Positions 1 through 18,008 of a DNA stretch of 19,392 nt are shown one piece after another. Position 1 is the first letter of the stretch, and each line of letters starts with the position of its first letter. Both the position numbers and the translations under genes were made by a program. Below the pieces are notes generated by a model. The model had not been told where the DNA came from and made no database searches. It was given only the letters and a program-made list of their open reading frames with translations. Source of the DNA: a virus; IMG/VR virus record IMGVR_UViG_3300045988_148937, positions 1 through 19,392 of that record; one strand, given 5' to 3'.

Positions 1-3
1 AAA

Positions 4-32
4 TTGTGTACCGCTTTCGCACGTGATAAGAT
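4..32 (+). promoter_or_regulatory. Candidate sigma70-type promoter inside the ITR, firing inward: -35 TTGTGT (4-9), 17-nt spacer, extended -10 TGaTAAGAT (24-32). An identical copy lies on the - strand at 19361..19389
   Basis: Hexamer spacing and the TGn extended -10 were read from sequence. No other obvious promoter sits upstream of either terminal gene. Confidence 0.3.
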
Positions 33-44
33 GTGATCGCAGTT

Positions 45-63
45 GGGGGCGAGGGAAGCCCCC
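45..63. other. GC hairpin GGGGGC-N7-GCCCCC inside the ITR (mirrored at 19330..19348). It would sit at the 5' end of a transcript from the ITR promoter
   Basis: Perfect 6-bp G/C stem seen in sequence. Confidence 0.4.
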
Positions 64-86
64 CGGATTGGAAGGTAGGCAAGGGT

Positions 87-437
87 ATGGAAACAACTAG
101 CGGAAAGATACCAAAATATGAAGTGCAGCGATTGTGCACGCTGCACAACGATCTGGTCATGCTTGAATCGCTTATAGCGCTGTTCATTTGCACGACGTTA
201 GACGCGGAGTACGCCGAATGCGATTGTGTGTATGTTGATGAACTTGGTGGGGATTGCGATGCACTTGGGAGATGGGGTTATTGCGACCCGTGCAAGGTAG
301 AGCGGGTTATGATGTTGGTGTTCGATATTTTCAGGATGTGCGACATAAGCGTTACCCAATCTATGGTGGAGGATATCGTCACCCGCGTATACAACAGCGT
401 TTACATCAACGGCTTAGGAGTAAATCATGGAGAATGA
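87..437 (+). CDS. Hypothetical Cys-rich small protein (CxC..C..CxxC, possible zinc ribbon). First gene inside the left ITR
   Basis: ATG at 87 lies 11 nt after GGAAGG (70-75, inside the ITR). The ORF track begins at GTG 33 inside the ITR, which seems less likely. Stop overlaps the next start (ATGGAGAATGA). Confidence 0.5.
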   Translation: METTSGKIPKYEVQRLCTLHNDLVMLESLIALFICTTLDAEYAECDCVYVDELGGDCDALGRWGYCDPCKVERVMMLVFDIFRMCDISVTQSMVEDIVTRVYNSVYINGLGVNHGE

Positions 438-918
438 GAACGGTTTTGAATCGTACAGGTTTAAGTCGCAGCAGATGCTCGATAGGGCATTCGGTTCGAA
501 CTATCTTCGTTATTGCGAGTTTGATGAAGCGACGGGGGGCGAATGCCCTGGTGCTGATTGCAACGCTTGCAAAGAACGTTTTGTAAAATCGGTTATAGAG
601 CAGATTGATACAGATGTTTTCAGCGAATTGGTCAATTACGAAATTAACGGCAGGAACGTCTTTTCTTCTCAGCATGAGATAAACCGCCTTGAAAATGAAA
701 ATCGCCAACTACGGTTGCGTATCACCGATTTGCGCCACGAGAACGAACGCATTAGAGAAAGTCCACCGGTGCAGCAAGCGCTGAAAGCTAGGGAACGCGG
801 CATGTTCGATGCACTTGCCGAGGTAGAGGACGCAATAGACCGAATCCGCTGCGGTAACGGTATACACCCAGAACTAGCTGAACACATGGAGAAATATGGA
901 TACCCGAACTATCGTTAG
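427..918 (+). CDS. Hypothetical early protein: N-terminal C-x9-C-x4-C-x2-C cluster plus a leucine-zipper-like coiled coil (RLENENRQLRLRITDLRHENERIRE). Possibly DNA-binding
   Basis: AGGAG 8 nt upstream of the start; 163-aa ORF. Confidence 0.6.
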   Translation: MENENGFESYRFKSQQMLDRAFGSNYLRYCEFDEATGGECPGADCNACKERFVKSVIEQIDTDVFSELVNYEINGRNVFSSQHEINRLENENRQLRLRITDLRHENERIRESPPVQQALKARERGMFDALAEVEDAIDRIRCGNGIHPELAEHMEKYGYPNYR

Positions 919-927
919 GAGCTACTG

Positions 928-1137
928 ATGAACACCTTCGATAAGGCAAACGTTGTCGATTACGTGAAATACCTGCGGGAGAACTGCCCGCATGCCGATG
1001 TCTATGCTCAGCAGATCGGAAAATCTTCGAGCTACGTTATCCGCGTCGACGGTTTCACGATTTTCGATAGCAGCGAGCTGCACGCTTTCTTGAGCGGGTA
1101 CAAGTCAGGCTATGCCAAGGGAAGGGCTTACCGATGA
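928..1137 (+). CDS. Hypothetical early protein (69 aa)
   Basis: AGGAGC RBS at 915-920; stop overlaps the next start (ATGA). Confidence 0.55.
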   Translation: MNTFDKANVVDYVKYLRENCPHADVYAQQIGKSSSYVIRVDGFTIFDSSELHAFLSGYKSGYAKGRAYR

Positions 1138-1358
1138 AAATAGAAGTGGAAGTTTCAGAGTACTTGAAGATGGCTTTACTGCTTGAGCGTCACGCCAATT
1201 TGCATGTGGCCATGAAGAACGTTGCATCCGACAGTGAAATGGACGGTTGGCACAAAGGGCGCGAGCTGACGCGTTTAGTCGATGGTTTTTCTGGCGAGAT
1301 AAGCGGTGAGCTTAAGTCGGTCATGGGGTGGTTGGATGAAGCTCAAGAAACTGCATAA
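1134..1358 (+). CDS. Hypothetical early protein (74 aa)
   Basis: ATGA start/stop coupling with the upstream gene. Confidence 0.55.
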   Translation: MKIEVEVSEYLKMALLLERHANLHVAMKNVASDSEMDGWHKGRELTRLVDGFSGEISGELKSVMGWLDEAQETA

Positions 1359-1512
1359 GCTGCTCGTGGACGATTACCTCATAACCGACCTGGACAACGG
1401 GTACACTCATCTGTCCACGGTCGATTTGAAAGAAGAGCTGGACAAGGAAGTTGTGAACATTTGCGCTTTCTACGACCAAGTTCTCGTAAAGGTTTGCGCG
1501 GATATGCGTTAG
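1336..1512 (+). CDS. Hypothetical small protein (58 aa from ATG 1336; ORF track starts at GTG 1306)
   Basis: Open frame continuing the early operon. Start uncertain. Confidence 0.35.
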   Translation: MKLKKLHKLLVDDYLITDLDNGYTHLSTVDLKEELDKEVVNICAFYDQVLVKVCADMR

Positions 1513-1541
1513 AATAGTGGCACCAAGAAAGGAGGTGAGAA

Positions 1542-1769
1542 ATGATTAGGAGAAAACTTACGTTCACAACCTGCGATGTAATAACCCCTGCGGGCGTTAC
1601 GTTAGGCAAATGCGAGCATATAGGGAAGATTTCTCCTGCAAGGCTCGCAAAAGTAGCCCGAAGGCGTTACAAGTATCAGCTCGCGACGATCACTAACTAC
1701 AGTACCCGCGAGGAAACCTACGAGATGGACGAGGAAACGTTCATCGAGCATGCTGAAAAAGTCAAATAA
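1542..1769 (+). CDS. Hypothetical early protein (75 aa), basic
   Basis: Excellent RBS AAAGGAGGTGAGAA upstream of the ATG. Confidence 0.6.
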   Translation: MIRRKLTFTTCDVITPAGVTLGKCEHIGKISPARLAKVARRRYKYQLATITNYSTREETYEMDEETFIEHAEKVK

Positions 1770-1789
1770 CAACAGGAAGGTAAACGATC

Positions 1790-2269
1790 ATGGAAGAAGC
1801 AATGAACGCTGTAGAGACCAACGAGATCGCGGTATTCCCCGCTGACAACGGAATCGCCAACTCTTGCGAAGGCTTCGCGCAGGGCATTCTGCGCAAGGTC
1901 AACGAGGAAGGTTATTATTCCACGTTCGATGTTTCAACAACAGCTGGCCGCAAGGCGCTCTACCGTGCGACCAACGCAAGCTCGCTTCTGCGAGATTTCA
2001 TGGAAACGCCGTTGGAGCTGAAGGACATCACCTTCGCGCCGTGCGAGATCTCCAACGACGATGGGGACACCGTGGCCATGTTGGGCGTGTACCTCACCGA
2101 TACCGACGGCAACACGTACAGTTCAACCTCTACGGGCGTGCTCAAATCGGCGATGCGCATCATCTCGCAGCTTGGCGAGCCTAGCACTTGGGACGAACCG
2201 CTGTCCGTCGTGTGCAAGGAGACCAACACCGCGAAGGGGCGTCGCTACAAGTTCCTCGACGTTGAGTAA
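1790..2269 (+). CDS. Hypothetical early protein (159 aa). Its position just before TP/DNAP would suit a replication accessory protein (SSB/DBP-like), by synteny only
   Basis: GGAAGGTAAA 9 nt upstream of the ATG; followed by an intrinsic terminator. Confidence 0.6.
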   Translation: MEEAMNAVETNEIAVFPADNGIANSCEGFAQGILRKVNEEGYYSTFDVSTTAGRKALYRATNASSLLRDFMETPLELKDITFAPCEISNDDGDTVAMLGVYLTDTDGNTYSSTSTGVLKSAMRIISQLGEPSTWDEPLSVVCKETNTAKGRRYKFLDVE

Positions 2270-2291
2270 AGCAGCGTCTGCGTGTATGCTG

Positions 2292-2318
2292 AAAGGGCGC
2301 CTTTGCGGCGCCCTTTTT
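2292..2318 (+). terminator. Rho-independent terminator: AAAGGGCGCC-tttgc-GGCGCCCTTT followed by a T-run
   Basis: 7-bp GC stem extended by A/T pairs, then TTTTT. Confidence 0.7.
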
Positions 2319-2336
2319 CATCTGCGGAAAAATTAA

Positions 2337-2360
2337 AGCCGTCGGCTTGCAGCGACGGCT
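2337..2360 (+). promoter_or_regulatory. Second hairpin AGCCGTCG-N8-CGACGGCT immediately upstream of the TP RBS, with no U-tract
   Basis: 8-bp perfect stem; followed by GAAGGAAGGTAGG and the ATG. Confidence 0.4.
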
Positions 2361-2378
2361 TGAAGGAAGGTAGGCGCT

Positions 2379-3584
2379 ATGGCGAGAAAGAAACGTACGG
2401 AACTGGACAAGGAGATTTCACGCGCCCAGAAAAACGCCCGTAACAAATTATACCGCATTCGAAAGAACGGCGCAATCAACACCGACGAGTTCGACCCTCG
2501 CGTGTCCCCGCAGGAGCTTAAGGCTATGAACGGCTCGCAGAAGAAGGCGTATCTGCGCAAGCTGAAGCTTTTCAACAAGCGCTCGAACAAAATCGTCGTG
2601 CAGAAGGGAAACGGCATCGCCGTTCCTGAAACGCTGCTCAAGCAGTACCGCCAAGCGGAGCTGGAGGTCAACGCCGCTCGAATCCTCAGGCGCGAGCAGA
2701 TAGAGGAAAGCGTCAAAACAGCCGCCCAGAAGGACATCGAGAAGATAAGGGAAGTCGTCAACACCGAGACTGCGCGCAAGGAACGGGCGGAGAAGCAAGG
2801 CAAGCCGTACAAGCCGCTTGAGAAGTCCGTGAGGGCTATGCGCGGCATGCCCGTCGATTGGCAGCGCCTGGACATCGATTACATGGTCACTGCAAGCGCG
2901 TACTACGATCCCGTCTTCAAGCGCCCCGTGCCAGGCGAGCGCAACCGATTCCAAGACATCGTGCCTATATGGATGCAGGAAGAGTTCCCTTCGGTCGAAT
3001 CGGTAGAGGTGCAGACCAGGAAGGCGAAGGAAGCAAAGAAGCGAATCAAGGTCGCCAGGAAGCGCTACCCTCAGTACCGCGCCGCTCTTGTAGAGAAGGC
3101 CATGTTCTCAGGCTACCCCGAGCTTGCGGAAGCGATCAGGGCGCTCACGTACGCCCAGCTTGATTATCTTCACTATTACACGGACTTCGACGCGTGGGGT
3201 TCGTTCTTCTCGTCTGGAAGGGCGTATGAACGGGGAGAGCAGGCGATGTTCGAGGAGGAACGCGACCAGACAGACCAGGCAGCAGAGCTTATGATGCGTG
3301 AGATATTGAAGGCTAGGCGAATCCGCCCAGGTCAGTCGGGGATATCGAACGTGACCTATGACATGGCGTACCGTGGCGTTATGGGGCGCGAGGCAGCGTA
3401 CGACCCCGACGGCGTGTCGGTGCAGCGCTCTGTGGCGTCAGTCGGCCCGTACAGCAGGACGGAGAGCACGTTCGGGCAGCATATCTTCGATTACAAGGCG
3501 GGCAAGGCAGGCGTTGCCATGAGCGAGCACCGTTTGCAGTCCGTTTACTACGAGATGCTCAGACAGGCGCGAGGAAGCCTATGA
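2379..3584 (+). CDS. Putative terminal protein (401 aa): basic N-terminus 'MARKKRTELDKEISRAQKNARNK', translationally coupled to DNAP
   Basis: Lies directly upstream of, and overlaps (ATGA), a protein-primed family-B DNAP, as in phi29, Cp-1 and PRD1. The N-terminus resembles phi29 TP 'MARSPRIRIK..AEYARLVKNTKAK'. The genome has ITRs. Confidence 0.6.
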   Translation: MARKKRTELDKEISRAQKNARNKLYRIRKNGAINTDEFDPRVSPQELKAMNGSQKKAYLRKLKLFNKRSNKIVVQKGNGIAVPETLLKQYRQAELEVNAARILRREQIEESVKTAAQKDIEKIREVVNTETARKERAEKQGKPYKPLEKSVRAMRGMPVDWQRLDIDYMVTASAYYDPVFKRPVPGERNRFQDIVPIWMQEEFPSVESVEVQTRKAKEAKKRIKVARKRYPQYRAALVEKAMFSGYPELAEAIRALTYAQLDYLHYYTDFDAWGSFFSSGRAYERGEQAMFEEERDQTDQAAELMMREILKARRIRPGQSGISNVTYDMAYRGVMGREAAYDPDGVSVQRSVASVGPYSRTESTFGQHIFDYKAGKAGVAMSEHRLQSVYYEMLRQARGSL

Positions 3585-5272
3585 TAGAGTACGCGAGCGA
3601 CTTCGAGACGACCACCGATGCGAACGATTGCCGCGTATGGGCGTGGGGCTGCGCGGAGGTCGGAGCCGAACCTGAAGACAGCTATGTTTACGGCAACGAT
3701 TTCGCCGGTTGGCTGTCCCACGTCATGGAAAACCCTGGGCGGTACTGGTTCCACAACCTCGGGTTCGATTCGAGGTTCGTTATGTGGAACCTTTTGCATA
3801 TGGGCTTCACGTGGGTGCCTAAGAAGCCGAAAGAAGGAGAGTTTTCGAGCGTAATAGACAACATGGGCAAGATCTACGCTTTGGAGATAGGAAACGCAAA
3901 CGGCAGGCTTCAGCTAGCCGACAGCTACAAGAAGTTCCCCATGAGCCTTGCGAGCGTTGCGCGTGCCTACGACTTGCCGATGAGCAAGGGGGAGCTGGAC
4001 TACGATGCTTACCGAGAAGTCGGGCACGAGCTTACCGAAGAGGAGAAAGATTACCTATCGCGCGACGTGCTGATACTCGCGCGGGCGATGCACAAGCGCC
4101 TTCAGGTGGGAACCAAGCTCACCACAGGGGCTGACTGCCTCGCCACCTACCAGGACATAATAGGCGACGTCAAATGGAAGATATGGTTTCCTCACCTCAA
4201 CCCGAAGCTCGACGGAGAGATACGCCAGGCGTACCGTGGCGGCTACGTGTACTGCAATCCGATTCACCAAGGCCAAGTAGTTGGCGAGGGGATCGCCTTG
4301 GACGTTAACTCGCTCTACCCGTACGTCATGCGCACGGCTCTCTTGCCGTGGGGCACGCCCAAGAGGTTCAAGGGCAGGCCGCGCGAAAGCGAGGAGTACC
4401 CGCTATGGGTGTGCTCGGTGCGCTTCGATGCTGCGATAAAACCAGGCAAGCTTCCCTGCATACAGATGAAGAACAACATGTTCTACGGTGACCGCGAGTA
4501 CATACGCGAGACGGTAGAGCCTATCGAGCTTTCCGTGTCTTCGGTAGACTGGAAGCTCATCTGCGACATGTACGAGGTAACGGTGTACGAGTGGGGCGGC
4601 GGGTACGCGTTCCATGCTTCACACGGCATGTTCGACGATTACATCGATCACTGGGTGCAAGAGAAGATCGTGGCAAGCAAGGATGGCAACCAGGCGCGGC
4701 GGCAGAACGCGAAGCTAGCCCTCAACAACCTCTACGGAAAGTTCGGCCAGAAGGTCGACGTGCAGGGCAAGGTGCCTTTTTTGGACTCAGAGGAGGTGTT
4801 GCGCTTCATCGACGGCGACGAGGACATGCGCGAGCCTGTCTACATCCCAGGCGCGGTGTTCATCACGGCGTGGGCACGCGACAAGACGATACGCACAGCT
4901 TGCGAGTTCGGCGACCGTTACCTTTACAGCGACACCGATTCAATCAAGGCGCTCGGGGCGGACATCCCAGAGGACGTGCACGTGGACGATTACGAACTGG
5001 GGGCATGGGCGTTGGAGGGAAGGTTCGACAAGGGCGTGTTCTTACGTGCCAAAACGTACGCGACGGTAACCGACGGCGTTCCGACCTACGTTTGCGCGGG
5101 CATGCCGAACAGCCTTAAGGATGTTATGATGTTCGAGGACTTCCGATTAGGGTTCACCACGCTGGGCACCGACAATCCCGACTACGCGAACCAAGATAAC
5201 TGGAAGCTCGTCCCTAAGAACGTTCGCGGCGGTTGCGTGCTCGTGCCGCTACCGTTTACAATTCACGGGTGA
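3581..5272 (+). CDS. Protein-primed family-B DNA polymerase (phi29-type)
   Basis: N-terminus 'DFETTTDANDCRVWAWG' matches phi29 'DFETTTKVEDCRVWAYG' (Exo I). Exo II 'HNLGFDSRF', Exo III 'YLSRDVLIL', motif A 'DVNSLYPY', motif B 'KLALNNLYGKFG', motif C 'YSDTDS' and KxY 'KTYA' are all present. Confidence 0.95.
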   Translation: MIEYASDFETTTDANDCRVWAWGCAEVGAEPEDSYVYGNDFAGWLSHVMENPGRYWFHNLGFDSRFVMWNLLHMGFTWVPKKPKEGEFSSVIDNMGKIYALEIGNANGRLQLADSYKKFPMSLASVARAYDLPMSKGELDYDAYREVGHELTEEEKDYLSRDVLILARAMHKRLQVGTKLTTGADCLATYQDIIGDVKWKIWFPHLNPKLDGEIRQAYRGGYVYCNPIHQGQVVGEGIALDVNSLYPYVMRTALLPWGTPKRFKGRPRESEEYPLWVCSVRFDAAIKPGKLPCIQMKNNMFYGDREYIRETVEPIELSVSSVDWKLICDMYEVTVYEWGGGYAFHASHGMFDDYIDHWVQEKIVASKDGNQARRQNAKLALNNLYGKFGQKVDVQGKVPFLDSEEVLRFIDGDEDMREPVYIPGAVFITAWARDKTIRTACEFGDRYLYSDTDSIKALGADIPEDVHVDDYELGAWALEGRFDKGVFLRAKTYATVTDGVPTYVCAGMPNSLKDVMMFEDFRLGFTTLGTDNPDYANQDNWKLVPKNVRGGCVLVPLPFTIHG

Positions 5273-5286
5273 AGGAGGTGATTTGA

Positions 5287-5670
5287 ATGGAAGTTCTCCA
5301 AGGTTTCGACTGGTGGGCGGTAACGATCGCTCTCGTCTTCATCGTGTTCGACTTCGTGTCGGGAATCGTCAAGGCGGCGTACAACAAGAGCATCTCGTCC
5401 TCCGTCATGCGCCAGGGGCTTTACCACAAGGTGGCAGAGTTCATGGTCATCGTGCTCGCGGTGTTCGTCGATGCGGCGTGCCAGCATCTTGAGCTAGGGT
5501 TCGACGCCCCGATACTCTCGGTAGCGTGCGCCTACATCGTGCTCATGGAAGTGGCAAGCATCATCGAGAACATCGGCGAGATGAACCCCGATCTGACAAA
5601 CAGCCCTGTTTTCGGCATCTTTCAGAAAGGAGAGAGCAATGACGCTTTACGGAATCGACGTGAGCAGTAA
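5287..5670 (+). CDS. Holin (3 predicted TM helices; resembles the phi29 gp14 / TcdE holin family)
   Basis: Strong RBS GAAGGAGGTG. Hydrophobic segments WWAVTIALVFIVFDFVSGIV, VAEFMVIVLAVFVDAA and ILSVACAYIVLMEVASIIENI. Immediately precedes and overlaps the endolysin gene. Confidence 0.7.
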   Translation: MEVLQGFDWWAVTIALVFIVFDFVSGIVKAAYNKSISSSVMRQGLYHKVAEFMVIVLAVFVDAACQHLELGFDAPILSVACAYIVLMEVASIIENIGEMNPDLTNSPVFGIFQKGESNDALRNRREQ

Positions 5671-6505
5671 CCAGCCCGCTGGAATCTGCTCGATGGTCGA
5701 TTACGATTTCGCCATCGTAAAGGCAACGGGAAACCCTCGCGGGTACTCGCAGTGGTACGTGAACCCTTACTATGAGCAACAGGTTCAAGAAGCCTACGAC
5801 AGGTGCGGGTGCGTCGGGCTTTATCATTTCACCTACGGAGGAGACGCGGCGGAGGAAGCCGATTTCTTCTGCGATACCGTTTCGGCGTGGGTCGGGTCGG
5901 CAATGCTCGTCATCGACTACGAGGGAGACGGGGCGCTTTCCCGAGGGCGCGAATGGCTGCGCGCGCTCATCGGGCGGGTTCGTGACAACACCGGGGTAAA
6001 TCCCGTGGTGTACGCATCGAGCAGCGTCATCGAAGAGCAGGAGCTGGAAGCGCTCTGCTCCGAAGAGGACTGCTCGCTTTGGAGCGCCAACTACTGGCGG
6101 GGATACGATACCGTCTACGGTTACGACACCGACGGCATGCGGCAGGACGTGCCAAGCTCGGCCTTGTGGCAGTTCACCAGCCAGGGCAGGCTCGATGGAT
6201 ACGACGGCTACCTAGACCTCGACGTGTTCTACGGAGACGCAGGCACGTGGGGCAAGTATTGCAGAGCGAACAAGGAAGAGGAAGAGGAAGACATGCTGAC
6301 GGAGCATCAGGACAAGCTTTTGGCGACCATCTACGAACAGCAGGTGGGAACGTACGACCCGACAGGGCGCGGCATCGAGCTTAACGACCATGACCATATC
6401 AAATGGATTGGCAAATATGTCAACGACATTCAAGCCAAGCTAGAAGAGCAAGACGCCAAAATCGACAAGATTCTCGCCAAAATCAAATGCGGGTGCGCAG
6501 ATTAA
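5639..6505 (+). CDS. Endolysin, GH25 muramidase domain (~aa 1-200), plus an atypical C-terminal region with a poly-Glu linker and coiled coil
   Basis: GH25 hallmarks 'YGIDVSSNQ', 'DFAIVKATGN', 'LYHFTYG', 'WQFTSQG..DLDVFYG'. AAGGAG RBS. Confidence 0.85.
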   Translation: MTLYGIDVSSNQPAGICSMVDYDFAIVKATGNPRGYSQWYVNPYYEQQVQEAYDRCGCVGLYHFTYGGDAAEEADFFCDTVSAWVGSAMLVIDYEGDGALSRGREWLRALIGRVRDNTGVNPVVYASSSVIEEQELEALCSEEDCSLWSANYWRGYDTVYGYDTDGMRQDVPSSALWQFTSQGRLDGYDGYLDLDVFYGDAGTWGKYCRANKEEEEEDMLTEHQDKLLATIYEQQVGTYDPTGRGIELNDHDHIKWIGKYVNDIQAKLEEQDAKIDKILAKIKCGCAD

Positions 6506-6776
6506 CGGCGCTCATCGACATACTGTCCAAGGAATCCCGCTGCGCTTCGGCCAGCGGGATTCCTTTTTCTTGCAATAGGCCGCAAACGGTGTCGGAAACG
6601 GTTGCGACGGCGGAGCGCAGGCTGCACTTCGCGAACCGCTCGCGCGGCATCTCCGCCGAAACGCCGTAGAGAGTCACCCTCACCTCGCACTCGCGGTCGC
6701 GGCTGTCGGCGCAAACATCGGCTGTTACCGCCCAAGCGCCGTCCGCCTTACCGCCTTCTAGGACAATTGTCTCCAT
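6483..6776 (-). CDS. Hypothetical 97-aa protein 'METIVLEGGKADGAWAV...'. It is the only antisense gene in the central genome. Candidate early/late transcription regulator by position (analogous to phi29 gene 4/6)
   Basis: ATG preceded by GGAAGG (10-nt spacer) and a perfect TATAAT (complement of 6809-6814). High GC3 codon usage. Caveat: the ORF runs through the opposite-strand terminator hairpin and overlaps the endolysin 3' end by 23 nt. Confidence 0.35.
   Translation of the reverse strand: METIVLEGGKADGAWAVTADVCADSRDRECEVRVTLYGVSAEMPRERFAKCSLRSAVATVSDTVCGLLQEKGIPLAEAQRDSLDSMSMSAVNLRTRI
6531..6568 (+). terminator. Strong intrinsic terminator: 12-bp perfect stem GGAATCCCGCTG / CAGCGGGATTCC around a C(UUCG)G tetraloop, then TTTTT
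   Basis: Read directly from sequence, 25 nt after the endolysin stop. Confidence 0.8.
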
Positions 6777-6781
6777 AGCAC

Positions 6782-6823
6782 TTTCCAACCTTCCGCTCAA
6801 GTGCGATAATTATAACGCTTGAG
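6782..6823. promoter_or_regulatory. Divergent promoter/operator region. + strand: -35 TTTCCA (6782-6787), 17-nt spacer, extended -10 TGcGATAAT (6802-6810), which would be the late promoter. - strand: TATAAT (6809-6814). The two -10s share the palindromic core ATAATTAT (6806-6813), flanked by IR CTCAAG (6796-6801) / CTTGAG (6818-6823)
   Basis: Hexamers, spacings and palindromes read from sequence. This is the only AT-rich block in a GC-rich 430-nt non-coding stretch upstream of the structural operon. Confidence 0.35.
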
Positions 6824-6940
6824 AAGCCCCGTTCGTTGTGCCAGTAGCGTAAATCGGGACAGCGGGCCTTGCGGCCACCGAAGCGCGGCTCCACTGCTGG
6901 GGGCTTTGAGCATGCCACGGGTGACTTCCGAGCAATCACA

Positions 6941-6978
6941 GACCCTTGCACGAAGTCGCACGACTAACTGCAAGGGTC
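6941..6978. promoter_or_regulatory. Perfect 10-bp inverted repeat GACCCTTGCA-N18-TGCAAGGGTC with a nested GTCG/CGAC mini-stem. It lies in the leader 22 nt upstream of the scaffold-gene SD
   Basis: Seen directly. No U-tract follows, so it is not a terminator. Could be an operator or an RNA processing/stability hairpin. Confidence 0.5.
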
Positions 6979-6999
6979 GACTAGTTTAAGGAGGAAGAA

Positions 7000-7302
7000 A
7001 TGGACTTCGATGAGGTGCTGTCGCAGTACGACAACATCCATGACGTGGAGGGAATCCCCGGGTTCCGAGAGACCCTTGTGAGCTACGGCCAGAGCGTGGG
7101 GCAGGTGTCGGAGGGCGCTAACGCCCGAATCTCGGAGCTGGAGACCGCGCTCGCGGCAGCCGAGGAGAAGGCAACCAACCTCGCCGCCCGCAACTACGAG
7201 CTGCTCATCGCGGCGACCGCCCAGGAGGCGTCCAAAGAACCCGAGCCAACCGAGCCGTCCGAGGAAGACAAGGACGTTTCGACGCTGTTCAAGAACAGAT
7301 AG
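7000..7302 (+). CDS. Head scaffolding protein (phi29 gp7-like, 100 aa, coiled coil, acidic C-terminus)
   Basis: AAGGAGG RBS. Size, position directly before the MCP gene and alpha-helical acidic composition match phi29 gp7. Confidence 0.75.
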   Translation: MDFDEVLSQYDNIHDVEGIPGFRETLVSYGQSVGQVSEGANARISELETALAAAEEKATNLAARNYELLIAATAQEASKEPEPTEPSEEDKDVSTLFKNR

Positions 7303-7311
7303 GAGACAATC

Positions 7312-8796
7312 ATGCCGAACACCGTTTTGCAGGCGGACAACGCCGCCATCATCAACAAGGTTCGTGCCAACGCGAGCCTCGATTACCAGTCGCGAATCCC
7401 CGTGGTAACACAAGCGAACCTGTCCAAGACGTTCGCAACGCTTCAGGCGTACCAGCCGATGTGGAACGAGTTCATGGACGTTCTCATCAACCGCATCGCG
7501 CTGACGCTGTTCAACACGAACAACTTCGAGAACCGCCTGAAGCCGCTCAAGTCGGGAGCTATGCAGTACGGCGGCCAGATTCAGGAGATCGGGGCGAACC
7601 TTCTCCATGCCGAGGCGTACGACCCCGACGACACCAACGTGTTCGGCGGCGAGAAGGCCGACGTTGAGGTCAACTACCACCAGATCAACCGCCGCGACAA
7701 GTACAAGATGCGCGTGAACAACGACCTTTTGGAAGAGGCGTTCTTGAGCGACGGGCAGCTTTCCGCGTTCGTGAACAGCCTTCTCGCCCTTCCCCAAAAA
7801 TCCGACGAGTGGGACGAGTACATCATCATGCGCGGGCTGCTCAAGCGCTACCAGGAAGCAGACGGCTTCTTCAACTACCAGGTTCCGAACCTCGCGACTT
7901 CCGCCGACCCCGAGGCCGACGGCAAGAAGATCACCGAGCTTCTGCGAGAGGTGTACCTGGACACCAAGGGCTTCTACCGAACGAAGTACAACGCGCTGGG
8001 CATGCAGGTAGCGCCCGAGGAGCTTATCCTTCTGGGCACGCCGAAGTTCTTCGCGAAGCTCGACGTCAACGTTCTTGCAGCCGCGTACCATATGGACAAG
8101 GCCGACTTCCTCGCAGACCGAACAATCGTCGTCGACGATTTCGAGATTCCCGGCACGCAGTGCATGTTCCTCGATTCCGAGTGGTACAAGTGCGTCGACA
8201 CCAAGATCAAGACCACCAACATGTACAACCCGAGCGCCGACGAGTGGACGTACTACCTTCATCATTGGGGCATCTACTCCGCTTCGCGCCAGCGCACGTG
8301 CATCCGCTTCTCGACCGACGCGACAACGGCCGTCGTCGGAGCGGCTCGCACGGTGACGGCAATCACGGCAGCGCTCGACCCGACGGTGGCGGGCAACAAG
8401 GTGCTCGCGCCTGGTGCTGACGCCGCGTTCAAGGTGGAAGTGTCCTACTCGGACGGCTCGACCGATTCCAACGCCTATGCGATCATCACGACCGAGGACG
8501 CGACCGCGCCGGCCAAGCTTCCCGCGAACGTCGTGTACCCCGAAACGGGAACCTACGTCGACCGCATGGGCGTGCTTCACGTGTCCGACACGGCAGCGTT
8601 CGACAACCTGACCGTCACCTGGGTGTCCACCGTCGACCCGACCAAGCTAACGTCCGTGAAGCTCACGGCGAGCGACAACGCGGTGGCCGCGTCCGACGAG
8701 TCTGGTGAGCGAGCTGTGGACGATTCGGAAACGACGCCGACCAAGGCCAAGGCGGTTTCCCGTGCCAAGACCGCATCGAGCGCCAAGGCCGAGTAA
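7312..8796 (+). CDS. Major capsid protein, phi29 gp8-like (HK97-fold core plus a C-terminal Ig-like/BIG2-type extension)
   Basis: 'YHQINRRDKYKMRVNNDLLEEAFLSDGQLSAFVNSLLALPQKSDEWDEYIIMRGLL' aligns to phi29 gp8 '[56 protein letters not shown]'. 'DVNVLAAAYHMDKADFL' aligns to phi29 'DVDVLAKAFNMNRTDFL'. Confidence 0.92.
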   Translation: MPNTVLQADNAAIINKVRANASLDYQSRIPVVTQANLSKTFATLQAYQPMWNEFMDVLINRIALTLFNTNNFENRLKPLKSGAMQYGGQIQEIGANLLHAEAYDPDDTNVFGGEKADVEVNYHQINRRDKYKMRVNNDLLEEAFLSDGQLSAFVNSLLALPQKSDEWDEYIIMRGLLKRYQEADGFFNYQVPNLATSADPEADGKKITELLREVYLDTKGFYRTKYNALGMQVAPEELILLGTPKFFAKLDVNVLAAAYHMDKADFLADRTIVVDDFEIPGTQCMFLDSEWYKCVDTKIKTTNMYNPSADEWTYYLHHWGIYSASRQRTCIRFSTDATTAVVGAARTVTAITAALDPTVAGNKVLAPGADAAFKVEVSYSDGSTDSNAYAIITTEDATAPAKLPANVVYPETGTYVDRMGVLHVSDTAAFDNLTVTWVSTVDPTKLTSVKLTASDNAVAASDESGERAVDDSETTPTKAKAVSRAKTASSAKAE

Positions 8797-10956
8797 ATGG
8801 GCGGCCTGCTCGAAAAGCTGCGCGGACAGAACCCCGACGCGGAAGAACCCGCGTCGGGGTTCACCCCTTACTCGTGGCCTACGAACTCCAAGGCCACGCT
8901 GTGCCGCGTGCCGTGGGACGCCACTTACCGCAACGTCGTCGATTGGCGCGACCAGGCAGGCAAAGACGAGTACTTCGAGACTCTCGCGGGCGACTCCGTG
9001 GCTCTCGATTCAATGACGTATCTGAAGCCGAACGACCCGATTTTCGTAGACGTCCCCTTCTCTCGGGCGTACGCCTACAACTACGTGGTTGTGGAGAACC
9101 CAAAACTTCCCGTGCCTGGCGAGGAGGAGCCGCGCAAGCTCTACTATTTCATCACCGCCGTCGGTTACGTTGCCCCCAACACCACGTCTATCGCCGTGCA
9201 GCTGGACGTGTGGACGACGTACGGCGACACCGCCAAGTTCGGCAGGTGCTTCGTTGAGCGCGGGCACGTGGCCATCGCCGCCGAGTGCAGCGCCGAGCCG
9301 CTCGACTGCGGGGAGATGGGGATTTCGCACACGGTGAACTACAGACGCTATCTAACGGCAGCCGAGGGTCTCGACGTGGGAAGCGCGTACCTCGTGGGCG
9401 ACAGCGAGGCTTTCTCGATCGCGCCGGTAGAAGAGGACGGCGGAAGCGCCTGGCGCGTCATCATCATGAGCACCGTCGACTTGATAGCGAGCTGGGGCAG
9501 CGTGTCGAACCCGTCGCTTACCACTGCCGACGGGCAGATCACAGACGGTCTTATCGGCGGCTGCAACGTGTACGCGCTGTCCACGAGCGACTTCAAGAAG
9601 TTCATGGAAGCGGTCTCGGACGCGCCGTGGGTGGCCAAGGGCATACTTTCGGTGACGGCCTTCCCCTCCGCGCTGCTTACGGCGGGCATACCCGTATCGG
9701 CGCACGGCGTCACGCTGTACTTTCTTGGCGATACGCCCGACAAAGGTTTTTACAAAGAGTTCGAGGACATGCCGAGGCGGCTGTCCATCTCGATACCGTA
9801 CCGCTACCGAAACCTGCACAAGTTCATGACATGGCCGTACTCCGCCATAGAGCTGAACGCGTGCAGCGGCAGCCCTGTCTTTTTGAAGCCAGAGCTTCTG
9901 GGCACCGACACGCTCAGGCTCAAGAACATGTCGTGCGCCGTGCCAGGGCATATTAAGATTGGGTTCTATCCGTGGGACTACGGCTCAAGGCGTCCGACAT
10001 CGGACAGCGAGGGCGGTATAAGCGTGCAATCCTACACTATGGACTCTCCCGTTTCCGTAAACGTGCAGGGGGACTTCCTCGATTCCGCCGTGTGGGTGTC
10101 CGACATGCCGAAGTTCTCCCTCGTCAACGACAACTACGCGAGCTATCTTGCGAGCACCGCGCACACGCGCGAGTGGCAGTACAACCAGGCGGGTTGGCAG
10201 CAGTCCAAGTCGAACGCGAGCGCCAACCTATCGTACGATCAGGCTCAGCAGAAAATATCGACGAACGCGTCGAACTACTACAACTCGCTAACGGGCTTGC
10301 AAGCTATGGCCATGGACAGCATCTGGAACGCGCCCGCGCTTCAGATAGGGGATTGGCAGAGCGGGTCTTTAAGCGGCGCGCTGTCCGCCATGGGCGCTGA
10401 CTCCAACGCGTTCGGCTGGAACTCGTCCGACATCGCGAACAACGTGAGCGGGCAGACTCAGTTCCTCAACAACCAGTCGCTTGCGGGAAACATCGCGTCG
10501 CAGAACCTGGATTTGGCTCAGTGGGCGGCTAAGGGCGACTATGAGAACGCCATCGCGGGAATAGACGCGACCGTTCAGGACGCGGCCATATCCACCCCGT
10601 CGGTCATCGGCCAGTCGGGCGGAAACGGGTTCGCGATGAGCAACGGCCTTTTCCTCGTGCAGATGCGCTGCAAGACCATCGACGAGAACCACCAGCGGGT
10701 AATCGGCGAGTACTGGCTTCGGTACGGGTACGCCGTGCGCGAGTTCATGACGCCGCCAAAGGACTTGTGCTGCATGGAGCACTTCACGTACTGGAAGATG
10801 CTCGAAACCTCGATCGAATGCGCCAAGGCGGACGAGACCTCGAAGGAGACGATTCGCGGCATATTCGAGAAAGGCGTTACCGTGTGGCGAAACCCGCGCG
10901 ACATCACGACGTTGGACATCGGAGATAACGACCCTGTAAAGGGAAACTATTACTAA
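8797..10956 (+). CDS. Tail knob / distal tail tube protein, phi29 gp9-like (719 aa)
   Basis: 'LYYFITAVGYVAPNTTSIAVQLDVWTTY' aligns to phi29 gp9 '[29 protein letters not shown]'. C-terminus 'IRGIFEKGVTVWRNPRDI' aligns to phi29 'IRTIFDNGITLWHTDNI'. Start abuts the MCP stop. Confidence 0.85.
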   Translation: MGGLLEKLRGQNPDAEEPASGFTPYSWPTNSKATLCRVPWDATYRNVVDWRDQAGKDEYFETLAGDSVALDSMTYLKPNDPIFVDVPFSRAYAYNYVVVENPKLPVPGEEEPRKLYYFITAVGYVAPNTTSIAVQLDVWTTYGDTAKFGRCFVERGHVAIAAECSAEPLDCGEMGISHTVNYRRYLTAAEGLDVGSAYLVGDSEAFSIAPVEEDGGSAWRVIIMSTVDLIASWGSVSNPSLTTADGQITDGLIGGCNVYALSTSDFKKFMEAVSDAPWVAKGILSVTAFPSALLTAGIPVSAHGVTLYFLGDTPDKGFYKEFEDMPRRLSISIPYRYRNLHKFMTWPYSAIELNACSGSPVFLKPELLGTDTLRLKNMSCAVPGHIKIGFYPWDYGSRRPTSDSEGGISVQSYTMDSPVSVNVQGDFLDSAVWVSDMPKFSLVNDNYASYLASTAHTREWQYNQAGWQQSKSNASANLSYDQAQQKISTNASNYYNSLTGLQAMAMDSIWNAPALQIGDWQSGSLSGALSAMGADSNAFGWNSSDIANNVSGQTQFLNNQSLAGNIASQNLDLAQWAAKGDYENAIAGIDATVQDAAISTPSVIGQSGGNGFAMSNGLFLVQMRCKTIDENHQRVIGEYWLRYGYAVREFMTPPKDLCCMEHFTYWKMLETSIECAKADETSKETIRGIFEKGVTVWRNPRDITTLDIGDNDPVKGNYY

Positions 10957-10965
10957 GGAGGTGCT

Positions 10966-12006
10966 ATGAGCAAGAGAATCAAGGAAAGCGATCTTATCGA
11001 CTGGCCAGACGAGATGGACCAGATGTACGGGCGCAAGTGGGTTAGGAAGATGTTCACGAGCGCCGAGCGCTTCGACATCGCGCAATACCGCCACTGGCTC
11101 TGGTACCTTGAGTCGCTGGCGCTGGGTGCGTTCGAATGGAGCAACGTACCGAGCGGAATAGACGCCCGCGCAATCGAGTACATCCTGCTGCATTTCGGGC
11201 AGGGCGCGCTGTTCATGGACGAGGGCGGCATGCTTTTCGCGAGCGCCGCGCCAGCCGACAACATAAACATGTACTGGAATCCGAACAAAATCCTGCTCAC
11301 CGCGCCGAACGGTCAGACATGGACGCGCCACTGCGAAACGTGGGTGGCCGCAGACGAGGCGGGGGAGCTTACAGTCCATCATCGCAACGCCGCCATGTGC
11401 TTCGACAACATGCGCAGGTTCCCGCTGTTCGCCGACATCCGCAACTATGCGAGAAGGCTTGCTCGAATCGACGCCATCCTCGACGTCAACCACGGCGCTC
11501 AGCGCACGCCTTACATCGTCACGGGCACCGAGGAAGGGAGAAACTCGCGGAGAGACGTCATCAGGAAGCTCGAATCGAACGACCAGTACATACAGATGAA
11601 CTCCGAGCTTTCCTCGAACCTGGGGATGATAGACGTGCTTCAGACGGTAGCGCCCTACGTCGCTGACAAGCTGCTCTCCGACAAGCAGAAAATCCTCAAC
11701 GAGGCCATCACGATGCTCGGCATCGACAACACGAACAACGAGAAGCGCGAGCGCATGATAGACGCCGAGGCCACGTCCAACAACGAGCAGATCATGGTCA
11801 TGCGCAGGACTCGGCTCGAAGAGCGCCGAAAGTTCTGCATCAAGGCGAACACGATGTTCCAAGACCTCGACATGTGGGTAGAATGGGGCGTCCCCCACGA
11901 GCGCACGAACATCGACGCGGAACCGCTTACCGACAACGCGCCAGACAACGAGGGGCAGTTCGCGACGCAGCCAGGGCAGCCGACGACGCGAAGGGAAGGA
12001 GACTAG
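10966..12006 (+). CDS. Head-tail connector / portal protein, phi29 gp10-like
   Basis: 'WLWYLESLALGAFEWSNVP' aligns to phi29 '[22 protein letters not shown]'. 'VNHGAQRTPYIV' aligns to 'VNQNAQKTPVLI'. 'APYVADKL...NEAITMLGIDNTNNEKRERMIDAEATSNNEQI' aligns to 'APYVVDKL...[32 protein letters not shown]'. AAGGAGG RBS. Confidence 0.92.
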   Translation: MSKRIKESDLIDWPDEMDQMYGRKWVRKMFTSAERFDIAQYRHWLWYLESLALGAFEWSNVPSGIDARAIEYILLHFGQGALFMDEGGMLFASAAPADNINMYWNPNKILLTAPNGQTWTRHCETWVAADEAGELTVHHRNAAMCFDNMRRFPLFADIRNYARRLARIDAILDVNHGAQRTPYIVTGTEEGRNSRRDVIRKLESNDQYIQMNSELSSNLGMIDVLQTVAPYVADKLLSDKQKILNEAITMLGIDNTNNEKRERMIDAEATSNNEQIMVMRRTRLEERRKFCIKANTMFQDLDMWVEWGVPHERTNIDAEPLTDNAPDNEGQFATQPGQPTTRREGD

Positions 12007-12007
12007 C

Positions 12008-12574
12008 ATGCTCTACAGCGACCAGGCACCGACGCTCTACGACGTCGTCCACCTCTACGGAGAGGACTACTCGGGCGCACTGTCCGACTACCCGATATGG
12101 GACGAGAGCCAGCGGGAGTGGCTCAACGGGAGAATCTTCGAGAAGTTCGCCTACCGCGAGATCGGGCAGGACACCCCCGCCAAGTTCCTGTTCTTCCTAC
12201 GTCGGCGCATGCACGACATGATGCCGAGCGTGAACCCGCTGTTCGCGGCGCTGGAGAACGTGGACGTGCTCGCCAGCTACGAGACGTTCGACGACGTGGA
12301 CGCTACCAGCAAGAGCAGCGCCGAGCAAGCCAACCTCTACTCGGCAACCCCGCAGACCCAGCTCTCGGGCAACAAGAACTACGCGACCAACCTCACGGAG
12401 ACCGAAGGCGAGAACGAGGGCGAGAGCGCCCAGAAGTCGCGCCATTACGGGCGTTCGGGAACCGTCGGCGACATGGCGTCTAACTGGGCTATGAGCGTGA
12501 ACAACGCGCTCTACATCGTATACAATGGGTTGGAACCGCTGTTCAACCAGATATGGAAGGAGGATGATGCGTGA
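12008..12574 (+). CDS. Structural protein, possibly lower collar / tail tube (gp11 position). Coding status high, identity by synteny only
   Basis: GGAAGGAG RBS, 188-aa ORF directly after the portal gene. No motif-level match recognised. Confidence 0.55.
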   Translation: MLYSDQAPTLYDVVHLYGEDYSGALSDYPIWDESQREWLNGRIFEKFAYREIGQDTPAKFLFFLRRRMHDMMPSVNPLFAALENVDVLASYETFDDVDATSKSSAEQANLYSATPQTQLSGNKNYATNLTETEGENEGESAQKSRHYGRSGTVGDMASNWAMSVNNALYIVYNGLEPLFNQIWKEDDA

Positions 12575-13104
12575 TGGCAGTATGGAAAGACGCGTGCAAC
12601 GCGCTCGATTTCGCTTATCGAGGGTACCAATACCCGCTCCCGCCGTCATGGAAGTACGCGGTCAGGCTCGAAGACCAGATCCAATGGCTTTTGCAGGCGA
12701 TACTCAAGCTTGCGGACGAATCGCTCGGCGATGAAGACCTCGACAGGCTTTACCGCTCGCTTAAGGAGTACATCGACGACAAGGCGGGGAAGCTTCAGAA
12801 GGAGCTTAACGAGCTGTCGGCAGGCGGCGGGTACTCCGTTTCGCCGACCGACGGCTTCAAGCGCTCTGGCACGGTTACGGCTCGCCAGCTGTTCGACGCG
12901 TCGCGCCCGTTCGGCATGACGTACGCAGGGCTTGCCGCCGCCGTCAAGACGTATGACGAGGTGAAGGCGAAGGGAAAGACGTACGATCAGGTGGACTTCT
13001 TCGCCACGCTCTGGTTCGGAGACGGCTCCATGACCGCGCACCGAACGCCCGCAGCGGACATTTCGGAGTCGTGGTTCGGAGGAGGGCGAAATGGCACTGC
13101 CTAA
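12571..13104 (+). CDS. Hypothetical structural protein (177 aa; ATG at 12574 is also possible)
   Basis: GGAGG RBS. Embedded in the structural operon between the collar-like and fibre genes. Confidence 0.6.
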   Translation: MMAVWKDACNALDFAYRGYQYPLPPSWKYAVRLEDQIQWLLQAILKLADESLGDEDLDRLYRSLKEYIDDKAGKLQKELNELSAGGGYSVSPTDGFKRSGTVTARQLFDASRPFGMTYAGLAAAVKTYDEVKAKGKTYDQVDFFATLWFGDGSMTAHRTPAADISESWFGGGRNGTA

Positions 13105-14284
13105 ATTCGCACAAGAAAGGCGAATAGACCTCGTGACCGCGGTCAACGAGCTAAGCGGTGCCGTCGATGAGGCGCTGGCGGGCGGCGGAGGCGGGGGAGG
13201 TTCGTACACCCTGCCCGTAGCGGGGGACTCTACCCTCGGAGGAGTAAAGGGGCAGCGCGTCGCGGAGAAGGACGGGAACGGGCGCATACTCAACGTAACG
13301 CCCGACGGCACGGCGTTCATCGACGCAGCCGACGCGCTCAATCCCGGCGTCGTTCGCTCCAAGGAGGGCAACGCCTTCGCCGACACGGACGCCAACGTGG
13401 CGGTCAACGCGCACGGGTACATGAAGTGCGACGCGGGCAAGGCGTACGTGGACGCGCAGGTAGCGGGAGTGGAAGCGCACCTTGAGGCGTTCGAAGCGGA
13501 AGCGGTCACGCAGGCCGAGGGAACCGCCCCTCTCACGCTCGCCGTATCGCCCGTGGCTGGAAGCGGAAGCAAGCTCACTGCAAGTCTGTCTTACAGCGAT
13601 TTTTTCAGGATTGACCGTAACAACAGGCTAAATTACGACGGTGATGCGTTTAATGCTGCCGCATTCCAATCAACTAAAGGTTGCTACCTGCGTGACGATG
13701 ACGGGGCAATAATCTCACAAAATGGCGATACTTCAGGTTTCGCAATCGACCCGAAGGGCGGAATCCTGGCAGTCGACAGCCGAGAAGATGGAATAGGCAT
13801 CACCTTCAAGCTCAACGTCGGCAACGGCCTGGCGCTCAACCCTCAAACGGGAATGCTGGAACTGCCCATCGACACGACGGCGGGACTCGGGTACGGCTCG
13901 AACGGGCTAGAGGTGGAGGTGGACGGTACCACGATCGTGCACAACCTTAACGGGCAGCTTAGCGTCGTGGACGCAGACGCGAAAGCGGTAACCGTTTCCT
14001 CGCAGCCCTCAGGCAGCCCCGTGTCGGCGCTGGCGCACGGCAAGACGGTGTGCGTGTCGTTCAACAGCGTCGCGGTGAGCGGGAACGCCAAAACGAAAGT
14101 GGGGAACCTCGGAATATACTACGCCCCCAGGACTGCGAAGACAGGCACCGTCGCCGCCATTGGGCCTAACGGCGTGATTACCGCATACTGCCAGGTAGAC
14201 GCAAACGGAAACATCTATATAAACCCCGTTACAGCATCGGGTGCAAACCTATCGTGGACAGGCACGCTAACCTATTTGATCTAA
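13091..14284 (+). CDS. Tail fibre / receptor-binding protein 1 (397 aa): Gly-run, the fibre motif 'YTLPVAGDSTLGGVKG', and a C-terminal domain shared with the next gene
   Basis: The 'Y-x-LP-x-A...GGVK' motif is typical of phage tail-fibre N-termini. C-terminus 'NGNIYINPVTASGANLSWTGTLTYLI' is paralogous to 14295..14960. Confidence 0.75.
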   Translation: MALPKFAQERRIDLVTAVNELSGAVDEALAGGGGGGGSYTLPVAGDSTLGGVKGQRVAEKDGNGRILNVTPDGTAFIDAADALNPGVVRSKEGNAFADTDANVAVNAHGYMKCDAGKAYVDAQVAGVEAHLEAFEAEAVTQAEGTAPLTLAVSPVAGSGSKLTASLSYSDFFRIDRNNRLNYDGDAFNAAAFQSTKGCYLRDDDGAIISQNGDTSGFAIDPKGGILAVDSREDGIGITFKLNVGNGLALNPQTGMLELPIDTTAGLGYGSNGLEVEVDGTTIVHNLNGQLSVVDADAKAVTVSSQPSGSPVSALAHGKTVCVSFNSVAVSGNAKTKVGNLGIYYAPRTAKTGTVAAIGPNGVITAYCQVDANGNIYINPVTASGANLSWTGTLTYLI

Positions 14285-14294
14285 GGAGACCAAC

Positions 14295-14960
14295 ATGTCA
14301 ACGCCTAACTACAATCTTCCAACCATCAGCGGAACCGAGGTAGCCGACTTCGTGGGCGACCTCAACGCGCTCGCCAACGCGACCGACTCCGCCTTGAAGG
14401 CAGTTGAGAACGCTGCATCGACCTACGTCCTTCCAACGGCAACCGCCTACGTGAAGGGCGGCGTTAAAATCGGAAAGGGCATCGAAGCCGACAGCGATGG
14501 TACTATTTCCGTCAAACTTGCCGCAGGAGAGGTGGGGACCGACGCGCTCGCGACTGGCGCGGTCACCGAGGATAAGCTTTCTCAGACAGTCGCCGCTTCC
14601 CTAGCAAACGGAAATCAGGCTCTTACGCAGGCGAACGCAGCTCTCAACGCGTTCAACGCCAAGCCGACACCCGCAGGAACGTTCTCTTCGGGGTCTGGAA
14701 CCATCGAAGCGTGGGGCAGAATCGCCATCGTGCACGCCGAACAGCTTGCCGTGCCCACAGGAACGAAAACGTTGGTGGGAACCGTCGGAGTCGGGTACCG
14801 GCCGAACTCCGAGACTACCGTCCCCGTGTCAGCGTTTGACGGAAGCGGGAACATCGTAATCGCGTTCCTCAAGGTGGAGACGGGCGGGAACATCTACATC
14901 AACCCTGGCGGCAAGACTGGTTTGAACTGGACAGGCACCGCCATCTACCTACTGGGATAG
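14295..14960 (+). CDS. Tail fibre / receptor-binding protein 2 (221 aa), paralog of the preceding gene
   Basis: 'YVLPTATAYVKGGVKIG' motif. C-terminus 'GGNIYINPGGKTGLNWTGTAIYLLG' is similar to the fibre 1 C-terminus. AAGGAG RBS. Confidence 0.75.
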   Translation: MSTPNYNLPTISGTEVADFVGDLNALANATDSALKAVENAASTYVLPTATAYVKGGVKIGKGIEADSDGTISVKLAAGEVGTDALATGAVTEDKLSQTVAASLANGNQALTQANAALNAFNAKPTPAGTFSSGSGTIEAWGRIAIVHAEQLAVPTGTKTLVGTVGVGYRPNSETTVPVSAFDGSGNIVIAFLKVETGGNIYINPGGKTGLNWTGTAIYLLG

Positions 14961-14966
14961 CCAGAC

Positions 14967-16253: not shown

Positions 16254-16261
16254 GAGGAGAC

Positions 16262-17323: not shown

Positions 17324-17354
17324 ATAACGCTGCCGCCCAAAGCGTCCCCGTCCT

Positions 17355-17731: not shown

Positions 17732-17738
17732 GAAATGC

Positions 17739-18002: not shown

Positions 18003-18008
18003 GTCGCA

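Follow-up and report, generated by a model that had tools for sequence, protein, structure and literature searches.

The subject of this study is the inverted terminal repeat (ITR) of a stretch of viral DNA of 19,392 bp (IMG/VR record IMGVR_UViG_3300045988_148937, positions 1 to 19,392; in the following, ‘the window’ means this whole stretch), which is a near-complete genome of a phi29-like phage of the Cp-1/Av-1 type. The best explanation of our observations, and one that we regard as probable from the sequence comparisons presented below, is that the inner part of the ITR is a duplicated early expression cassette belonging to a truncated ITR of about 200 bp. The cassette would consist of a promoter, a leader and a ribosome binding site (RBS), and it is duplicated because it lies inside the repeat. 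Both terminal operons would thus be fired inward and symmetrically. This reading is supported indirectly: an inward promoter is placed in the ITR because both terminal genes face inward and have only ITR DNA upstream. The feature itself is real and probably functional, with a predicted promoter activity and a predicted start site.

Anatomy and truncation of the terminal repeat

The two ends of the window are perfect reverse complements over exactly 79 nt. These are the inner 79 nt of the left ITR arm (1-79, plus strand) and of the right ITR arm (19314-19392, minus strand). Each arm contains the same series of elements. Firstly, a -35-like hexamer TTGTGT with 3/6 matches (4-9, plus strand; mirror 19384-19389, minus strand) is followed by an extended -10 element TGaTAAGAT, i.e. 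TGATAAGAT, in which the TG, 4/6 hexamer positions and in particular A2 and T6 are kept (24-32, plus strand; mirror 19361-19369, minus strand). Transcription is predicted to start 7-9 nt past the -10 hexamer, at 39-41 on the plus strand and at the mirrored 19352-19354 on the minus strand, according to the established geometry of sigma-70 promoters. Secondly, a stem-loop GGGGGC-GAGGGAA-GCCCCC in the 5' untranslated region occupies positions 45-63 on the plus strand (mirror 19330-19348) and is part of the minimum free energy fold of both arms. Finally, the Shine-Dalgarno (SD) sequence GGAAGGTAGG closes the repeat at 70-79 on the plus strand (mirror 19314-19323).

All of these motifs had been listed by a first-pass annotation of the window, with the hairpin given as GGGGGC-N7-GCCCCC, and all were found at the coordinates it gave. 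Its start of the unique sequence at position 80 agrees with the repeat boundary and also with an independent assembly of the same phage (L058), which starts exactly at the first unique base. The ATG codons were correctly placed at 87 on the left and 19307 on the right; however, the claimed identical spacing of 11 nt from GGAAGG does not hold, as it measures 11 nt on the left vs 10 nt on the right. Neither do both terminal genes begin 8 nt past the boundary: the left one does, whereas the right one begins 7 nt past it, its ATG corresponding to mirror position 86.

Public assemblies were searched for the exact terminal proteins, which revealed the same phage in other samples (99.7-99.94% identity). 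Contigs with 99.94% identity across more than 3.3 kb reach further out than the window itself. On the left arm, one contig (L043) extends 196 nt outside the junction between ITR and unique sequence, which is 117 nt beyond the window, and another (L055) extends 127 nt, or 48 nt beyond the window. On the right arm, a contig from the same sample as L055 (L042) likewise covers 127 nt outside the junction and 48 nt beyond the window, and two more stop at 80 nt (L057) and at 0 nt (L058). The ITR arm is at least 196 nt long on the left, and both arms are at least 127 nt long. Altogether, the window is truncated inside an ITR of about 200 bp, the true ITR being at least 196 bp. The added outer sequence is A/C-rich, with 9% G vs 30% genome-wide, and is homologous to the outer ITRs of relatives. 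It stops at (G)TGTAG, which is also where the contigs of relatives stop; no assembly reaches a demonstrable terminus, and the exact ITR terminus had no match in IMG/VR. The contig end of one relative (L052) reads AAATGTAG, which resembles AAATGTA, the core terminus that a phi29-like cluster has been reported to have (PMC6266182).

Because the ITR measures at least 196 bp, the -35-like box lies about 120 bp from the DNA end and not 3 bp from it. The terminal origin region is a separate outer module, about 120 bp from the promoter and adjacent to the promoter module. In the first-pass annotation, the 79-bp ITR itself had been taken as the replication origin, with its -35 box 3 nt from the end, and this is contradicted by the longer contigs of the same phage. 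An ITR that is complete at 79 bp, acts itself as replication origin and carries a -35 box 3 nt from a protein-capped end is hardly credible, even though the window does show a perfect 79-nt repeat opening with AAA, like the termini of the phi29 family (PMC6266182). Against it, four independent contigs of the same phage extend 1 to 117 nt further out, both arms reach at least 127 nt within one sample, and the outer part shows homology to the outer ITRs of relatives, including their (G)TGTAG end. Moreover, the AAA at window position 1 is internal, lying within cacagAAAAATTGTGT, and assemblies of this clade often break near the ITR junction. A sliding-back terminus at this AAA was considered as well and is rejected, since the AAA is internal in L043, L042 and L055. 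It also follows that a reporter made from the 79-bp ITR, as had been suggested, would leave out upstream sequence that is conserved and contains an UP-like A/T block, because this sequence is missing from the window.

The breaks in the assemblies of the clade often lie at or slightly inside the ITR junction, and a polymorphic base is located just outside the break of the window. The number 79 is a default k value of MEGAHIT. The k-mer size of the assembler is therefore a plausible, although unproven, cause of the 79-nt length; one k119 assembly retained 80 nt on one arm. A separate observation was made in sample ERZ27229764, where the contigs of the left and right arms differ at window positions 12 and 35 and their mirrors. 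These differences (2 of 127 positions) consist of C/A in the promoter spacer at 12 and A/G just after the -10, near +1, at 35. Either the two arms can differ, or the sample contains a mixture of strains.

Predicted promoter, leader and ribosome binding site

The composite motif TTGNNN-N13-15-TGnTANNNT was found at 3 sites when both strands of the window were considered, and two of the three are the ITR arms; dinucleotide shuffles gave 0.60 ± 0.83 sites. No extended -10 site other than the ITR element precedes either terminal operon. Identical promoter elements stand on both arms and point inward (4-32 on the plus strand, 19361-19389 on the complement), as is also the case in L004, L005 and contig 110232.

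Close relatives with 78-82% polymerase identity were drawn from IMG/VR and metagenomes. Across 6 distinct lineages including that of the window, the -35, the 17-nt spacer and the -10 are kept in the same register (T.Gaca, 17 nt, TAt..T). The window lineage has a -35 TTGTGT and an extended -10 TGaTAAGAT. The -35 is TAGACA in L004, followed by TGaTATAGT, in L005 and L006, followed by TGcTATAGT, and in L052, followed by TGcTATAAT. In L039 and L054, TTGACA is combined with a -10 TATAGT, and in L048 with TATTAT. Upstream blocks are conserved too, namely CAACTTTTT..AAATA at about -57 to -36, which is UP-like, and CACC(C)CAAAATAT; both are absent from the window. The perfect ITR measures 257 nt in L004 and 235 nt in L005; L039 is truncated at its right end, and its arms match through the ATG. 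The repeat of L004 and L039 thus takes in the cassette up to and including the ATG; that of L005 ends behind the hairpin, and each L005 arm has its own SD. The first-pass annotation had described the ITR as a symmetrical inward early cassette; this part gains support from the promoter position, the leader and the SD that relatives keep, whereas its 79-bp origin model has to be given up.

An additional observation concerns base composition. On the 5'-ended strand the outer ITR is depleted of G, with 4-10% vs 30% genome-wide (L043 1-117, L004 1-155, L005 1-157, L052 1-151 and L039 1-183), and both of the conserved blocks lie just upstream of the promoter.

The two genes that would be served by the arms differ in their conservation. 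The left terminal gene (87-437, plus strand, 116 aa) is a lineage-specific ORFan that is called in independent contigs. The right terminal gene (19056-19307, minus strand, 83 aa) is conserved, with 76% amino acid identity to the right-terminal gene of L004. The two copies show 23 synonymous vs 22 non-synonymous codon differences, and judging from this comparison the right terminal gene is real and under purifying selection. A tblastn search with the right-terminal protein gave no match in isolated phages, and Pfam and PHROGs returned nothing reliable for either terminal protein. Two minor observations were made at the left gene. On the minus strand at 123-146, inside the gene, there is a terminator-like hairpin with a T-run that points to the left end, with no minus-strand gene upstream of it. 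In L004, the left terminal gene has an in-frame TAG (L004 255-330) where L005 and L006 read through, which may indicate a pseudogene or a sequencing error.

Regarding translation, GGAAGGTAGG stands before both terminal ATG codons, and the same 10-mer is found 4 nt before the ATG at 2379 of the candidate terminal protein (TP). GGAAGGTA precedes the ATG at 1790 of the single-stranded DNA-binding protein (SSB). On these grounds, the 10-mer is the early-gene SD of this phage. Most genes in the window carry AGGAG, GGAGG or GAAGG, and at the same place relatives have GGAAGGAG or AAAGGAG as SD.

The leader hairpin occurs with three unrelated stems: GGGGGC/GCCCCC in the window, GCACCC/GGGTGC in L004 to L006 and AGCGAGG/CCTCGCT in L052. 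In the decay of Gram-positive mRNA, structures close to the 5' end protect against 5'-dependent RNases, and the hairpin may be a stabiliser of the mRNA 5' end, although its function is unproven. That it might instead be an intrinsic terminator or attenuator, acting on outward read-through or on early transcripts, is extremely improbable. The GC-rich 6-bp stem and the 7-nt loop would suit this role, but no T/U-run follows 45-63 on either strand, the terminator scan was silent there, and the true terminators elsewhere in the genome do have U-runs. In addition, the SD stays unpaired in the left-arm fold. As a U-run is lacking on either strand, the hairpin at 45-63 was rejected as a terminator.

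Several points weigh against reading the ITR as an early expression cassette. The promoter activity of this phage is a prediction, and the applicable host consensus is assumed, a polymerase search of 185k bacterial genomes having found no relative. Compared to the sigma-70 consensus, the window element matches at 7/12 positions plus TG, so that by this comparison it is a degenerate copy of the conserved promoter and the weakest in the clade. A generic sigma-70 scan with a threshold of at least 9/12 misses it, even in the full-length arm, and reports the sites of the two relatives scanned (L004 with 10/12 plus TG, L052 with 11/12 plus TG). The hairpin is not exceptional either, since 17 perfect 6-bp GC-rich hairpins were counted in the window vs 13.3 ± 4.5 in shuffles. 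The folds of the leader do not exceed shuffled sequences in stability (z about -0.7), and the hairpin is absent in L039, L048 and L054, which form one sub-clade. Furthermore, the left terminal gene is without a homolog in relatives and among 5.8 billion proteins found only itself. Lastly, the perfect identity of the arms in the window could partly reflect assembly collapse.

Some of these points would fit a different reading, in which the ITR does hold a promoter, but not TTGTGT/TAAGAT. The ancestral promoter would have decayed, and transcription would start elsewhere in the arm of about 200 bp or depend on another sigma factor or a phage-modified polymerase. We consider this rather unlikely. 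It is favored by the 7/12 match, the poorest in the clade, by the empty generic scan of the full arm and by the change of the -35 box from ACA to TGT. However, the full arm holds no better candidate. The window copy has also kept the 17-nt spacing, the TTG of the -35 and, in the extended -10, the TG together with A2 and T6, despite a change in the spacer sequence, and its leader length and SD geometry agree with those of relatives.

Related phages, proposed mechanism and significance

The Streptococcus phage Cp-1 (Cepunavirus) is among the closest parallels to a duplicated terminal cassette. Like the window phage, it has a protein-primed phi29-like genome of about 19.3 kb with a long ITR, and its outer ITR is G-poor (7% G). 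Promoters of the sigma-A type are duplicated at mirrored coordinates and fire inward, with the first genes soon after the repeat. Its early genes (TP and polymerase) are co-directional with the late genes, and a small leftward operon is located at the right end. The GenBank record of Cp-1 gives a 236-bp ITR, start sites PE1/PE2 at 351/357 on the left and PE4/PE5 at 18993/19087 on the right, which is mirror 351/257, and -35 and -10 boxes at mirrored coordinates. Comparison of the two Cp-1 arms shows a perfect match as far as position 236 and few differences up to about 352, after which the sequences diverge shortly ahead of the RBS. There are also differences. In Cp-1, each arm has two tandem consensus TTGACA-17-TATAAT promoters, the perfect repeat ends inside the first of them and the repeat stops before the RBS, there is no leader hairpin and the GC content is 39%. 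Moreover, the Cp-1 start sites are annotated in the record, whereas that of the window phage is predicted only. The Cp-1 start sites were reportedly mapped experimentally (Martin et al. 1996, J Virol).

The Actinomyces phage Av-1 (Dybvigvirus) shares the layout of the window, with early genes, SSB, TP, polymerase, late genes and a minus-strand operon at the right end. In both of its arms, a -35 box is annotated at 206-211 (mirrored coordinates), where the ITR of about 210 bp has its inner edge. It differs in that the ITR is imperfect and ends at the -35, so that the -10, the leader and the RBS are outside the repeat and unlike between the arms; the Av-1 promoters are annotations only. In a distant group of high GC content, with 34% tail-protein identity, the ITR is perfect over 127 nt and ends just past TGTGCTATGAT, and an imperfect repeat continues through leader and SD to ATG codons at 157/158. 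The record of Curtobacterium phage Reje, in which no ITR was seen, is uninformative, and the literature searched contained no explicit statement on promoters inside phage ITRs. Judging from these sequence records, this phi29-like branch has an established and widespread design in which early promoters stand in mirrored positions within or at the ITR and fire inward; the window phage would be a further case.

More remote parallels exist as well. The E1A/E4 regions of adenovirus and the early operons of PRD1 belong to linear, TP-capped genomes with ITRs that have inward early units by both ends; they differ from the window phage in lineage, polymerase and promoter type. The early promoter C2 of phi29 has no counterpart at the opposite end; transcription of the left early genes begins at the internal promoters A2b/A2c and proceeds towards the end. 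The phi29 ITR also differs in being only 6 bp long. In the phi29 genome map, C2 is near the right genome end (PMC10899789). Protein p6 of phi29 activates the origin, switches off C2 and coats the genome ends (PMC4974454; PMC10899789). The window likewise encodes, at the equivalent gene position, a p6-like double-stranded DNA-binding protein of 75 aa (1542-1769, plus strand; phrog_6370, E = 2e-6), located in the left early operon before SSB. This protein is 65-70% conserved across all close relatives, and the order p6-like protein, SSB, candidate TP and polymerase corresponds to the phi29 order 6-5-3-2. The p6-like protein is thus a candidate regulator of both the ITR origin and the ITR promoter.

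Another possibility is that the conserved inner ITR serves replication or a nucleoprotein complex, as a site for TP, polymerase or the p6-like protein, with an incidental likeness to a promoter. The hairpin would then be a palindromic DNA operator or a single-stranded DNA structure. The spacer (CaCTTT..caC) and the upstream blocks are indeed conserved beyond what a promoter needs, the regions that phi29 p6 recognises and binds lie 46-125 bp from the ends (PMC10899789) and the hairpin is a perfect palindrome. We nevertheless judge this reading improbable. Inward terminal genes with strong SDs need a promoter and have only ITR DNA upstream, relatives hold consensus promoters (10-11/12) at this place, and the start sites of Cp-1 are annotated at the equivalent place. 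Three unrelated stem sequences at the same position speak for a structure and not for a sequence-specific operator. Replication and promoter roles are, in addition, not mutually exclusive.

For the early expression cassette, the following mechanism can be proposed. When either end enters the cell, host RNA polymerase would bind the ITR promoter of the sigma-A/sigma-70 type with its weak -35, its extended -10 and possibly an UP-like block. Transcription would start near 39-41 and run inward from both ends as soon as either end has entered. The leader would measure about 48 nt, its 5' end folding into the GC stem-loop that would protect the mRNA. The unpaired SD GGAAGGTAGG would then drive translation of the first gene, with the unique sequence beginning 7-8 nt before the start codons. 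The outer, G-poor part of the ITR (117 nt or more) would carry the terminal replication-origin sequences and the conserved A/T blocks upstream of the promoter. Later, the p6-like protein may shut the ITR promoter off, as phi29 p6 does at C2. Panhandle or repair models explain how ITR identity is kept (PMC11886824). A homogenisation from arm to arm along the lines of these models (PMC11886824) would keep the cassette alike at both ends.

A more tentative extension, possible but clearly less likely than the cassette itself, is that the ITR is a self-homogenising, portable early cassette, with the start-codon junction as a landing site for capturing or swapping early genes. Arm-to-arm repair would keep the promoter, the leader and the RBS (in some lineages also the ATG) identical at both ends. 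Several observations are consistent with this idea. The left terminal gene is an ORFan, L039 and L048 have the same cassette in front of different first genes, and the leader and ATGCGTTAC are common to the right arms of L004 and L005, which then continue into unrelated proteins. The structurally conserved 5' stem-loop with its three unrelated stem sequences fits as well.

Contigs of ITR-bearing phages with a short ‘perfect ITR’ may be truncated in a longer repeat, and claims on origins or termini as well as reporter designs based on them can mislead. In at least three lineage groups (this clade, the distant high-GC group and Cp-1/Av-1), the ITR appears to join a terminal origin module and an inward early promoter. 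With origin and inward promoter both in the ITR, the end that enters first would therefore be transcribed at once, and both early operons would be co-regulated. A compact module of promoter, leader and SD could also serve in orthogonal linear replicons. The current understanding of these phages is not overturned.

Operons and gene content of the window

The early operons behind the two arms end in clear terminators. The left operon extends from 87 to about 2269 and includes the genes for the p6-like protein and the phi29-type SSB (1790-2269, plus strand). It ends in an intrinsic terminator after SSB (2291-2319, plus strand; -21.4 kcal/mol, z = -4.3, then UUUUU), behind which TP and polymerase follow. 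The right operon extends from 19307 to about 17739 and ends in an intrinsic terminator at 17731-17705 on the minus strand (fold z = -4.4, then a U-run). Within this operon, 231 nt (18030-18260) inside the open reading frame (ORF) 18009-18515 are missing in L057 and L058 of the same phage, which represents a strain-level indel in an early gene.

The candidate TP is encoded by an ORF of 401 aa (2379-3584, plus strand) that overlaps the polymerase start by 4 nt. It was assigned by position only; it had no Pfam or PHROG match and no detectable similarity to the TP of Av-1. Its leader repeats the layout of the ITR, with a hairpin at 2336-2361, GGAAGGTAGG at 2365-2374 and the ATG at 2379. No promoter is evident between the terminator at 2291-2319 and TP, and TP and polymerase may depend on read-through of this terminator.

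The window has a GC content of 58% and is a phi29-like protein-primed podovirus genome. The gene at 3581-5272 encodes a protein-primed family B DNA polymerase (PF03175, E = 5e-64; phrog_1907, E = 5e-134), with Curtobacterium phages and Av-1 as the nearest polymerases among isolated phages, at about 41% amino acid identity. Further products of the phi29 type are the major capsid protein, the connector, the tail knob and the gp16 packaging ATPase (PF25622, PF05352, PF20934 and PF05894); a GH25 endolysin and a holin are encoded as well. The genes up to about 17.3 kb from the left end are all carried on the plus strand except for a minus-strand ORF at 6483-6800, and a small minus-strand operon occupies the right end. 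Among isolated phages, megablast with the whole window as query found no match. The endolysin had tblastn matches of only about 30-37%, scattered over phages of Firmicutes and Actinobacteria.

Two regions outside the repeat deserve mention. After the packaging ATPase gene, a 430-nt non-coding stretch (17305-17739) is a candidate pRNA, with a fold z of only -2.2; neither a pRNA nor a leader family was matched in Rfam at E <= 1. This stretch contains an extended -10 TGgTATAGT at 17574-17582 and ends with a hairpin at 17711-17731. The other region surrounds the minus-strand ORF at 6483-6800 (105 aa), which has its own SD GGAAGGTTGG, and near it a strong plus-strand terminator is located at 6536-6570. 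At about 6782-6815 there is a divergent promoter-like region, with TTTCCA-17-TGcGATAAT on the plus strand and TATAAT on the opposite one. About 180 nt of untranslated leader separate this region from the late genes. Positions 6483-7000 may therefore represent an early/late switch region with a regulator gene.

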